Source: Escherichia coli
GTDB lineage: Bacteria; Pseudomonadota; Gammaproteobacteria; Enterobacterales; Enterobacteriaceae
Length of the DNA stretch: 64,000 nt
Assembly (NCBI RefSeq): GCF_041886205.1
Contig: NZ_CP169029.1
Strand: one strand, 5' to 3'
Shown here piece after piece: positions 57,001 to 64,000 of the stretch (within the stretch, counting starts at the first letter, position 1; each line of letters starts with the position of its first letter). The position numbers were made by a program.

Positions 57001-60000
57001 GAGACATACTTATGGTCATCGTAAGCGTACAGCCTGAACCGTCTGGTCAGAATCTGACGAATTAGACAAAGTGGTGTCCACCAAATAAGTAGTGGGAACC
57101 AAAGTATCAGATATGCAGAAAAATGTGACTCCCGCCAGGCGAAAAGGCTGCCCTAATTATCCTCCCGAATTTAAACAGCAGCTCGTTGCTGCCTCCTGTG
57201 ACCCCGGGATATCCATCTCAAAACTTGCTCTTGAAAATGGCATTAACGCCAATCTGTTGTTCAAATGGCGACAACAATGGCGCGAGGGAAAGCTGCTATT
57301 ACCTTCTTCAGAGAGCCCCCAGCTACTTCCTGTGACTCTTGATGCAGTTGCCGAACAGCCAGAATCGCTCGCAGAGGACCCGGAAACCCTCAGTATCAGT
57401 TGTGAGGTAACGTTCCGGCACGGGACGCTCCGCTTCAATGGCAATGTCAGCGAAAAGCTCCTGACTCTGCTGATACAGGAACTGAAGCGATGATCCCGTT
57501 ACCTTCCGGGACCAAAATTTGGCTGGTTGCCGGTATCACCGATATGAGAAATGGCTTCAACGGCCTGGCTGCGAAAGTACAGACGGAGCTGAAAGACGAT
57601 CCCATGTCCGGCCATGTTTTCATTTTCCGGGGCCGCAGCGGTAGTCAGGTTAAACTGCTGTGGTCCACCGGTGACGGACTGTGCCTCCTGACCAAACGGC
57701 TGGAGCGTGGGCGCTTCGCCTGGCCGTCAGCCCGTGATGGCAAAGTGTTCCTTACGCAGGCGCAACTGGCGATGCTGCTGGAGGGTATAGTCTGGATGCA
57801 ACCGGGAAGGTCGAAAAGTAATAGTCTGCGGATCTGAATCCCTTTACCTGGGCAGGATGAAAAATATCCCGCTTCCTGATAATATCGACCAGCTGAAAGC
57901 CCTGTTGCGTCAGCAGCAGGTTGCTGTGGAACAGCTAAATGTTACCATGAAAAAGCAGCAGGCCCGGCTGCGCCAGTACGCCGGACAGGTTGCCGACTAC
58001 GAACAGGAAATCGAACGGCTGAAGGCACAGCTTGATAAGTTGATAAGCTGCGGCGGATGCTGTTCGGGCAGAGTTCAGAGAAAAGCCGCAATAAACTGGA
58101 AAATAAAATCCGCCAGGCAGAGAAGCGGCTGGCTGAGCTGGAAAACCGTCTTGCAGCGGCAAAACGCTGTCTGCAGGACGATGAGCCCACTGTCAGTACG
58201 GTTGAGCAGGCAGAGCCCCCGGTGGCGGTCGCCCCACAGGACCGGCCTGCACGCCGCTCCCGTCGTCAGAAACTGCCGGCAGACCTGCCACGTGAAACCC
58301 GGCGCATCACCCCGACAGTGACTGTCTGCCCGAAATGCGGCGGCGACCTGAAGGTGATGAGTGAAACCGTCTCAGAGCAACTGGAGATAATCCGCAGCGC
58401 CTTTAAGGTCATCGAAACGGTGCGCCCGAAGCTGGCCTGCAGCGGTGTGCTTGTTGGTTCCGCCCTGAATACACAGTCACAGACCCTGACCAACAGTGGT
58501 CTGTTGCAGGGGGAGGCCTCACTCACCGTTAACACACAGAGGCTTGATAATCAGCAGAACGGCACGCTGTACAGTGCTGCAGACCTGACGCTGGATATAC
58601 CGGACATCCGCAACAGCGGGCTTATCACCGGTGATAATGGTTTAACGTTAAACACTGCCTCCCTCAGCAATCCGGGAAAAATCATCGCTGACACGCTGAA
58701 CGTCAGGGCGACCACGCTGGATGGTGATGGTCTGTTGCAGGGCGCCGGTGCACTGGCGCTTGCAGGCGACACCCTCTCACAGGGCCGTAACGGACGCTGG
58801 CTGACGGCGGGCGACCTCTCCCTCCGGGGTAAAACACTGCATACCGCAGGGACCATGCAGGGACAGAATCTCACCGTGCAGGCGGACAACTGGGCGAACA
58901 GTGGCTCCGTGCTGGCAACCGGTAACCTTACTGCTTCGGCAACCGGTCAGTTGACCAGTACCGGCGATATCATGAGCCAGGGTGACACCACGCTGAACGC
59001 AGCCACCACGGACAACCGGGGCAGTCTGCTTTCGGCCGGCACGCTCTCTCTTGATGGAAATTCACTGGATAACAGCGGCACTGTCCAGGGTAACCATGTC
59101 ACGCTTCACCACAGAAGCACTGACAACAGCGGTACGGTCACGGGGCTGAGCGGTCTGACCCTGCACAGCGCGGACGGGCTTACCAACAGTGGCGCGCTGC
59201 TGAGCCAGAACTCGCTGGCGCTGAGCGCAGGAGATGTGACCAACAGCGGCCGGATTCAGGGGCAGAACATCACTCTGGATGCCAGCAGCCTGACCAGCAG
59301 CGGTGCTGTTCAGAGTGCGCTGGATTTGGCTCTGACCCTGAGTGGCGATGTTATTGCTGCCACCGGCAGCAAAATTACCGCCATGGGCGATGCCCGCCTG
59401 ACCGGGAAAGTGCTGGGTAACCAGGGATTAATCAGCGCGAAGACGCTGGAAGTGAATGGTGATTCGCTCAGCAACAGTGGCGAAATCAGTGGTGTTAACA
59501 GCCTGAACGTGACACTCAGTGGTAATCTGCAACAGCACGGTAAAATGCTGACAGGCGGTGCATTAAACGTCAACGCCAGAGACATCAGCAATAGTGGGCA
59601 GCTTCAGGGGGCGGATAACCGAATCACCGCCAGTTCGCTGACCAACTCAGGTCGTGTGCAGGGCGACAGCGGGCTGACTCTTACATTGCTGAATGCCCTG
59701 ACCAACCAGACCAGCGGTGTGCTTCTCAGCCAGAACGTATCAGCGCTTTCCGCACCCGTGCTGACCAATGACGGCACCATTCAGGGCAACGGTAAAACCA
59801 CGCTCAGCGCGGCAACGCAGGCCCACAACAGTGGCAAGATTCTTTCCGGCGGTGAGCTGACGTTCACCACGCCGGACTACAGTGGCAGTGGCTGGCTACA
59901 GGCCACTGACCTGCTGCTGAACGTGGCGAAGCTTGCCGGTAATGGCACTGTGATGGCGGCGAATCAGGCAACGCTCACAGGTAACAGTCTGACCAACCGT

Positions 60001-63000: not shown

Positions 63001-64000
63001 TGGACAGCAGTCTGTTTGCCGGACTGTATGACCTGCTCAGGATGCACCCCGGGCAGGCACCACGTGAAACAGACCCGGCGTATACTGATGATAAACAATT
63101 CCCGGGCTCATCGTATTTTCTTGACCGGCTCGGGCTGAAACCGGAAAAAGATTATCGCTTCCTGGGGGATGCCGCTTTTGATACCCGCTATGTATCGAAC
63201 TATATGCTGAACCAGATCGGGGGGCGCTATATCAACGGGGTTGGTTCAGACACCGACCAGATGCGCTACCTGATGGATAACGCTGCCCGTGCACAGAAGG
63301 CGCTCGGTCTGAAGTTTGGTGTGGCACTGACAGCAGACCAGGTGGCGGCTCTCGACCAAAGTATTCTGTGGTATAAAGCCGTCACGATAAAGGGTCAGAC
63401 GGTGATGGTGCCGGAAGTGTATCTGTCACCGAAAGATGTGACGCTGCAGAACGGCAGTATTATCAGCGGTCAGAATGTGCACCTGGCAGGAGGGAATGTC
63501 ACTAACAGTGGCAGTACCCTGATGGCGCAGAATGATCTCACCATCGACAGCGCTGACAGTCTGGGTAACCTTGAGTCCGGGCTTATAAATGCCGGTGGCG
63601 CTCTCGGACTGAAAGCGATGGGCGATATCAACAATATCAGTGCCACGATTACCGGTAAGACTGTCCGGCTGGAGAGTCTCGCCGGCAATGTCAATAATCT
63701 CACCCGGTACTCACACTGGCAGCTTGATGCACCGGAAGACAGCCTCGCCCTGAAACACACTTATACGGGAAGCATTGCCTCTGTCAGTGCCATGGATAGT
63801 CTGGACATCCGGGCAGATAAAAACATTTCGGTCACAGGGGCAGAAATCAGCGCCGGAGGTCGCGCAGCACTTATTGCCGGCAATGATCTCAGTCTGAATG
63901 CCATTGACAGGGTAAGCAGCAGTCGCCATGCAAACAGTGAATCTCACCAGCGCAGTGCAGAACTTACGACCATTACTGCCGGCGACAGTGTGATGCTGAG

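Follow-up and report, generated by a model that had tools for sequence, protein, structure and literature searches.

A predicted class III cdiA remnant joined to IS66 tnpC and interrupted by IS186 in a mosaic island of Escherichia coli

We analyzed a stretch of 64,000 nucleotides of Escherichia coli (contig NZ_CP169029.1 of assembly GCF_041886205.1), hereafter called the window, with the focus on its right end, where a remnant of cdiA, the gene for the contact-dependent inhibition (CDI) effector CdiA, is joined to a fragment of an insertion sequence (IS), IS66, and interrupted by a second one, IS186. The joint product is a chimeric open reading frame (ORF) of 1179 amino acid residues at 58057-61596 (+), which was recovered in the ORF listing and by NCBIfam, Pfam, and blastp; its residues 1-128 are derived from TnpC, residues 129-1165 from CdiA, and its final 14 codons lie inside the left end of IS186. 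Pfam assigned LZ_Tnp_IS66 to residues 1-81 and zf-IS66 to residues 89-129, followed by Fil_haemagg repeats, and NCBIfam assigned transpos_IS66 to residues 66-129 together with fil_hemag_20aa. The two databases agree with an earlier reading of this DNA made without database searches (the sequence-only reading), according to which the ORF at 58057 begins as IS66 TnpC. The CdiA portion consists of FHA-1 repeats and a receptor-binding region. Beyond IS186 (61554-62892, +), cdiA continues at 62903-64000 (+) with the covarying/YP region, which corresponds to residues ~1660-2025 of the CdiA of strain N1 (WP_001680718.1, 3236 aa) and stays open to the window end when read from 62904. This segment is 100% identical to the locus of strain ZYB39 (NZ_CP098234.1) and 99.9% identical to that of strain N10, and NCBIfam found no family in the distal fragment at 62904-63998.

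To assign the CdiA part to a class, it was aligned with full-length N1 CdiA. From the junction onward, the nucleotide identity was 99.5%, and the protein identity was about 1.00 from residue ~800 to ~2600; the fusion aligned from residue 619/624 of N1 CdiA, with breakpoints at 623 and 1657-1660. Ruhe et al. 2017 (PMC5371414), who showed that class III CdiA uses Tsx as its receptor, include the N1 protein in their Table S3 under "Predicted class III CdiA proteins". The receptor-binding region of the remnant is identical in protein sequence to that of WP_001680718.1, and it shows 19-34% identity to class II CdiA of EC536 and 43% to class I CdiA of EC93. Because of its protein identity to a sequence listed in that table, the remnant is assigned, as predicted from sequence, to class III (Tsx-binding) CdiA.

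The repeats alone would allow another assignment, namely to an FhaB- or HecA-like haemagglutinin or adhesin unrelated to CDI, since within the window Pfam and NCBIfam detect only generic Fil_haemagg repeats (TIGR01731 fil_hemag_20aa with 51 bits against a cut-off of 18, several Pfam Fil_haemagg matches, and periodic repeat families). We consider this extremely improbable: across its receptor-binding and covarying regions, the protein matches a curated class III CdiA at ~100% identity; in ZYB39, the gene continues into PT-VENN and a C-terminal toxin domain (CT), with a small gene downstream; and intact relatives carry cdiB and a cdiI. The alignment to full-length CdiA thus bears out the earlier choice of CdiA over other haemagglutinins and, together with the listing in Table S3, refutes the alternative.

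The remnant lacks CdiA residues 1-622, comprising the signal peptide, the two-partner secretion (TPS) domain, and the early part of FHA-1. When residues 1-623 of N1 CdiA were searched against the 64-kb window by tblastn, only a weak repeat-level match was obtained, and CdiB gave no tblastn match anywhere in the window, just as the sequence-only reading had stated for the region preceding the gene. Upstream of the remnant, the place of cdiB is taken by IS66, a potE fragment, and the F17 operon. In the established two-partner secretion mechanism, CdiA needs its signal peptide, its TPS domain, and CdiB to arrive at the cell surface. Because all three are missing here, the product would not be exportable, and the remnant is, with strong likelihood, non-functional as an effector; the description of the locus as an inactivated CDI locus therefore holds, and its class can be added.

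The TnpC part belongs to the 5′ 1423 bp of an IS66-family element at 57021-58443 (+), which contains the left inverted repeat, tnpA (57092-57493, +; NCBIfam IS66 TnpA), tnpB (57490-57837, +; NCBIfam IS66_TnpB), and a truncated tnpC (57857-58443, +; 626/627 identity to tnpC of strain 135). The left inverted repeat, GTAAGCGTACAGC, starts at 57021, which corrects the start at 57011 given previously, and it matches the right ends at window position 48210 and of the full-length copy in strain 135. No IS66 right inverted repeat follows the tnpC fragment. The element is cut at nucleotide 1423, and of the arrangement expected for a mobile element, tnpA-tnpB-tnpC between GTAAGCG-type inverted repeats, the left repeat, tnpA, and tnpB are present and tnpC is frameshifted; this copy is a remnant and not a mobile element.

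The frameshift is caused by an 8-bp tandem duplication, TTGATAAG TTGATAAG, placed by alignment at 58036-58051 (+; coordinates approximate to a few bases). Because of it, the tnpC start at 57857 is out of frame with the chimeric ORF: a 154-aa ORF at 57857-58321 holds the TnpC N-terminus in a frame that differs from that of 58057-61596, so that an internal Met of TnpC serves as the start of the chimeric ORF. The earlier description "fused in frame" accordingly applies to the part of tnpC past its frameshift and fails for the part upstream of it. The full-length IS66 copy of strain 135 has the same 8-bp duplication, and its tnpC is annotated as "frameshifted"; for this reason, the IS66 lineage was probably already defective before the fusion, as far as the two copies indicate. 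The identical 8-bp lesion in the window and in strain 135 also shows a defective IS66 lineage in circulation.

The tnpC::cdiA junction was mapped by a three-way comparison of the window, IS66, and the cdiA of N10 to a GCAGC microhomology at 58439-58443 (+), which refines the switch to haemagglutinin repeats previously placed at about 58441. The window follows strain 135 tnpC without a mismatch into the junction, to 58443 (...CTGGCCTGCAGC), and cdiA homology begins afterwards; past 58443, tnpC reads CGCTGC and the window reads GGTGTGCTTG..., like cdiA, whose alleles read ...CTGACCAGCAGC|GGCGT... at the joint. The five nucleotides GCAGC are common to the tnpC and cdiA parents and lie within a looser 10/12 match. 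The window shows few mismatches to N10 just past the joint, and these are allelic, because strain CFIAFB20180511 has only two differences there. In CdiA, the joint falls at Ser623 of the 3236-aa N1 reference, with residue 125 of the fusion aligned by blastp to N1 residue 619.

Because the joint lies inside tnpC and carries a 5-nt microhomology, it has the character of a scar left by microhomology-mediated deletion or illegitimate recombination and not of a transposition end. Such an event at GCAGC would have joined the interior of the defective tnpC to cdiA at codon ~623. With it, cdiB and the cdi promoter would have been lost, as would the signal peptide, the TPS domain, and the start of FHA-1. 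The sequence-only reading had counted two independent IS events in the gene; IS186 stands as a true insertion, and the IS66/cdiA joint is better described as a deletion scar than as the result of transposition.

A 120-nt probe across the joint was searched against a collection of 5426 complete E. coli genomes, of which the source genome of the window is not a member, and the junction was found in only two of them, ZYB39 and JML285. In ZYB39, the locus (KFZ69_RS21695) is labeled a pseudogene by the Prokaryotic Genome Annotation Pipeline (PGAP) as "hemagglutinin repeat-containing protein, frameshifted". JML285 matches the window only to ~59145 and then continues with a divergent cdiA allele of ~77% identity (12001-13875 of the JML285 stretch and beyond), so that homologous recombination has reshuffled the dead gene after the fusion. 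JML285 was also considered as a second sibling with an empty IS186 site and was rejected, as its different allele after ~59145 is uninformative on that site.

Two readings other than a recombination scar have to be weighed against these data. The chimera of the TnpC leucine zipper-zinc finger segment with FHA repeats might be a selected functional fusion, for example a cytoplasmic or regulatory protein, as the joint is in frame, the ORF is open over 1179 aa here and over 2666 aa in ZYB39, and the junction persists in three genomes. An in-frame joint is, however, expected by chance in one of three cases, and the in-frame character of this one is most likely coincidental; moreover, the tnpC start is out of frame, the ORF relies on an internal Met, and scanning of 56700-58600, around the start of the fusion ORF, gave no sigma-70-like promoter. 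The pseudogene label in ZYB39, the disruption by IS186 here, and the frameshifts and stops in the JML285 copy form the pattern expected of neutral decay. We know of no cytoplasmic role for a beta-helical secreted stalk, and we regard a functional fusion as highly unlikely. The region is also rich in IS66 copies and in internally repetitive FHA repeats, which could in principle be collapsed or mis-joined into an assembly chimera. The junction nevertheless occurs base for base in two independent complete genomes, and IS186 has a proper 10-bp duplication in a canonical motif, so the probability of such an artifact is close to negligible. A deletion or illegitimate-recombination scar is thus preferred over both.

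The IS186/IS421 copy at 61554-62892 (+) is complete at 1339 bp, as judged from its inverted-repeat pair, NCBIfam, and its identity to annotated copies, and the same ends and target as in the sequence-only reading were recovered. It has the ~1.34-kb size of the family, perfect 23-bp terminal inverted repeats (CATAAGCGCTAACTTAAGGGTTG), and one DDE transposase ORF at 61603/61609-62721 (+; NCBIfam transpos_IS4_1, 133 bits, cut-off 115), and it is flanked by a 10-bp target duplication, GGAACTATCC, with the left copy at 61544-61553 and the right copy at 62893-62902. The rebuilt target, GGGGAACTATCCCC, contains the site GGGG-AACTAT-CCCC, in agreement with the IS186 target 5′-GGGG(N6/N7)CCCC-3′, which has few sites per genome and receives repeated independent insertions in both orientations (Lee et al. 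2016, PMC5009759). The copy shows no mismatches to those of N10 and CFIAFB20180511, where PGAP names the product "IS4-like element IS421 family transposase". One other GGGG-N6-CCCC motif is present in the window, at 32668-32681 (GGGGTGACCTCCCC), and carries no IS186; with 1.07 such motifs expected by chance, their count in the window is unremarkable by itself.

Deletion of IS186 and one repeat copy restored a frame of 1531 codons with no stop to the window end, as anticipated, and the rejoined cdiA showed no mismatches in 4595 nt to the IS-free ZYB39 locus. Upstream, the window is collinear with ZYB39 over 18.9 kb at 99.98% identity. On the basis of these two comparisons, the IS186 insertion is the latest event at the locus, specific to this lineage within the collection searched; the fusion predates it, because the junction is common to ZYB39 and JML285. 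The junction and IS186 together were found in none of the 5426 genomes, and ZYB39 is the closest. In the lineage of this strain only, IS186 would have entered the canonical GGGG-N6-CCCC site at the ..GNY|PLP.. boundary, created its usual 10-bp duplication, and cut the chimeric ORF to 1179 codons.

Alternatively, homologous recombination with an N10-like allele that already contained IS186 could have brought in the element along with the cdiA sequence around it, as the N10 copy agrees with that of the window in position and orientation and shows no mismatches over 1339 bp. IS identity says little here, since IS186 copies are near-identical everywhere. The flanks in the window are identical to ZYB39. 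Against N10, 24 mismatches were counted over the 3.1 kb on the left, and on the right a mismatch lies only 6 nt past the duplication (CCCCTGCC in the window and CCCCTGCT in N10). The opposite orientation of IS186 in CFIAFB20180511, in addition, proves that independent insertions occur at this site. Because the window differs from N10 near the IS and equals ZYB39, independent insertion in this lineage is favored, and import is very unlikely.

The recurrence of IS186 at the same cdiA site was examined in the genome collection. A probe for the left IS186/cdiA junction matched N10 and JNEC-KY203, both with the orientation seen in the window. In N10, IS186, with the same duplication, interrupts a cdiB-cdiA locus that is complete apart from it and belongs to a different island. 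The IS186 of CFIAFB20180511 occupies this position too and is flanked by the same duplication, but it is inverted, and its insertion is therefore independent. In JNEC-KY203, the right flank of IS186 differs (GGAGGTTCCCCC) and adjoins rpiA (9048-10420 of the locus stretch examined), which indicates a later IS186-mediated rearrangement in which the distal half of cdiA was lost or moved; the cdiB of JNEC-KY203 is also frameshifted. The empty site was found in 101 genomes, and ~450 more match only from mid-site onward, where the conserved part of cdiA starts. The site is thus occupied in this strain and in 3 of ~104 class III loci in complete genomes, and the class III cdiA site qualifies, from these comparisons, as a recurrent IS186 hotspot. 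The "intense IS activity" of the sequence-only reading is apt for the island, which is rich in IS, but the IS186 insertion itself is better explained by a hotspot that is defined by its sequence and has been hit again in other strains.

The target corresponds to G1657-N-Y-P1660 of N1 CdiA. In EC93 CdiA, the receptor-binding region ends at Tyr1636 and the covarying region starts at Pro1637, and the receptor-domain swaps of the same study used this module boundary (Ruhe et al. 2017, PMC5371414). GNY|PLP in the window is the homologous boundary, and IS186 lies exactly there, between Tyr and Pro and hence between the receptor-binding and covarying regions. According to our own reading of the primers published in PMC5371414, EC93 and EC536 do not have the GGGG...CCCC motif at this boundary. 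It is conceivable, and in our view unlikely, that only class III cdiA has GGGG-AACTAT-CCCC and that the site serves to switch CDI off repeatedly or provides a portable point of homology for swapping receptor-binding and toxin modules. Any biological significance of the class III boundary as an IS186 target is speculative.

The continuation of the gene beyond the window was examined in ZYB39. Its frame of 2666 codons proceeds through FHA-2 repeats (Fil_haemagg_2) and PT-VENN, with VENN at fusion residue 2443, to a 224-aa Gly-rich CT. The CT is followed, in order, by an 85-aa hydrophobic membrane ORF, a second similar orphan pair, ISCro1, and an EC536-type VENN-CT/cdiI pair. The CT gave no NCBIfam or Pfam family, and the immunity ORFs of ZYB39 gave no NCBIfam family. 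The CT has 95.5% identity to a degenerate, stop-containing orphan module downstream of cdiA on the EC93 plasmid pCP127; the matching module is a separate orphan and not the CT of the pCP127 cdiA itself. The Gly-rich sequence and the small membrane partner suggest that the ZYB39 CT is a putative membrane-acting toxin, and no toxin activity is claimed. The putative immunity gene of ZYB39 may protect against kin with the same toxin. By analogy with ZYB39, the strain analyzed here has very probably kept the FHA-2, VENN, toxin, and immunity part directly past the window end. The earlier suggestion of a surviving toxin tip and immunity gene downstream thus holds directly for ZYB39, which is 100% identical across the finding, and by extrapolation for this strain.

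Taken together, we consider it very probable that the locus is a non-functional class III (Tsx-targeting) cdiA remnant, lying in a mosaic IS-rich island beside the F17 operon, which would have arisen by a tnpC::cdiA deletion fusion and would then have been interrupted by IS186. Several points weigh against this conclusion. The window ends at 64000, and toxin and immunity survival in this strain is extrapolated from ZYB39; the term non-functional is derived from the missing secretion parts and not from expression; the order in which the tnpC frameshift preceded the fusion is deduced from the same duplication in an unrelated full-length copy; and a second, intact cdiBAI may be present elsewhere in the source genome.

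From left to right, the window contains glcDEFGBA, the type I Wadjet system jetABCD, a CP4-like island with Ag43 and cbtA/cbeA, an orphan cdiA-CT tail with cdiI, IS2, two back-to-back IS66 copies, the F17 fimbrial operon, the potE fragment, and the tnpC::cdiA remnant. The Wadjet anti-plasmid system (11920-18605, +) is complete, with JetA, JetB, JetC, and JetD of 498, 254, 1095, and 394 aa and very strong PADLOC matches (903 bits for JetA and 1624 bits for JetC), and its place at the left edge of the island is directly after the glycolate operon glcDEF..B..A (3083-11507). A second cdi remnant is found at 39441-40173 (+), 17 kb upstream of the first, and consists of the last ~95 codons of a cdiA-CT (ORF 39408-39725) and a 124-aa CDI immunity gene (39731-40105). 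Fragments of IS200/IS605 and IS2 come next. The nucleotide sequence of this second remnant is 98% identical to the end of the class III cdiA and cdiI of CFIAFB20180511.

The back-to-back IS66 copies occupy 44000-48216. The minus-strand copy has a truncated tnpC of 366 aa (44000-45903), and the plus-strand copy (45957-48179) has a truncated tnpA and an intact-length tnpC of 523 aa with an internal duplication of 11 residues; the tnpB of the latter is 98% identical to that of the fusion locus. The F17 operon lies entirely on the minus strand, with f17A at 55540-56088, a chaperone gene, the usher gene at 52199-54736, and f17G at 51163-52197. The block from F17 through the potE fragment to IS66 tnpA/tnpB (50998-57795) is common to pVir68-type plasmids at ~97.6% identity. 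The homology stops inside IS66, which suggests a possible IS66-mediated movement of the F17 module between plasmid and chromosome. That the window itself is a Vir-type plasmid was considered and rejected, as the shared block ends at 57795 and the cdiA part is not shared with the plasmids.

Both the gene family and the behavior of the IS are already well described, and the locus is an ordinary pseudogene of an already annotated kind. The suitable label is a pseudogene of class III cdiA with a tnpC::cdiA deletion fusion and an interruption by IS186, and not a protein-coding "haemagglutinin" gene or a novel fusion protein. The significance beyond annotation is slight. The only mildly new point is the class III receptor-binding/covarying boundary as a recurrent target of IS186, which we did not find named in PMC5009759 or PMC5371414, and this hotspot at a module boundary is possibly of interest to CDI and IS specialists. 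Comparison with the sister genome ZYB39 reveals the order of events, with the fusion earlier and IS186 last. Should this strain still have the downstream immunity genes seen in ZYB39, it may stay protected against matching toxins and yet be unable to deploy them.

Compared with the ZYB39 locus, the window has the same tnpC::cdiA junction, the same flanks (F17 operon, potE fragment, and IS66 tnpA/tnpB), and the same rejoined sequence, whereas the ZYB39 gene is free of IS186 and the far-left part of its island is next to cadCBA and not glc. The left flank is glc/Wadjet in the window and cadCBA-lysS in ZYB39, and the island core therefore lies in different chromosomal contexts or has been rearranged; near 42.6 kb, moreover, ZYB39 has an IS100 with no counterpart in the window. 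Compared with class III CdiA of the STEC_O31 type (Tsx receptor; WP_001680718.1, strains N1/HVH 98), the FHA-1, receptor-binding, and covarying regions are the same, at ~100% protein identity from residue 624 on. The differences from N1 CdiA are that residues 1-622 and cdiB are missing, that 128 TnpC residues stand in their place, and that IS186 lies at codons 1657-1660; in addition, the ZYB39 toxin tip is unlike the Endonuclease NS_2 type of N1, with identity dropping after residue ~2900. Like orphan or degraded cdiA-CT/cdiI modules, the remnant has no secretion-competent 5′ end, and in ZYB39 it keeps toxin and immunity genes beside further orphan pairs; unlike typical orphan modules, which start near VENN, it retains ~2000 residues of stalk and a receptor-binding domain. 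Finally, the IS186 site agrees with published hotspots, such as those in fimA and menC (Lee et al. 2016, PMC5009759), in its motif with a 6-bp core, in recurrent insertions with both orientations at one site, and in a 10-bp duplication made of the core and two flanking bases per side, and it differs from them in that the target lies within class III cdiA at the boundary of the receptor-binding and covarying regions.

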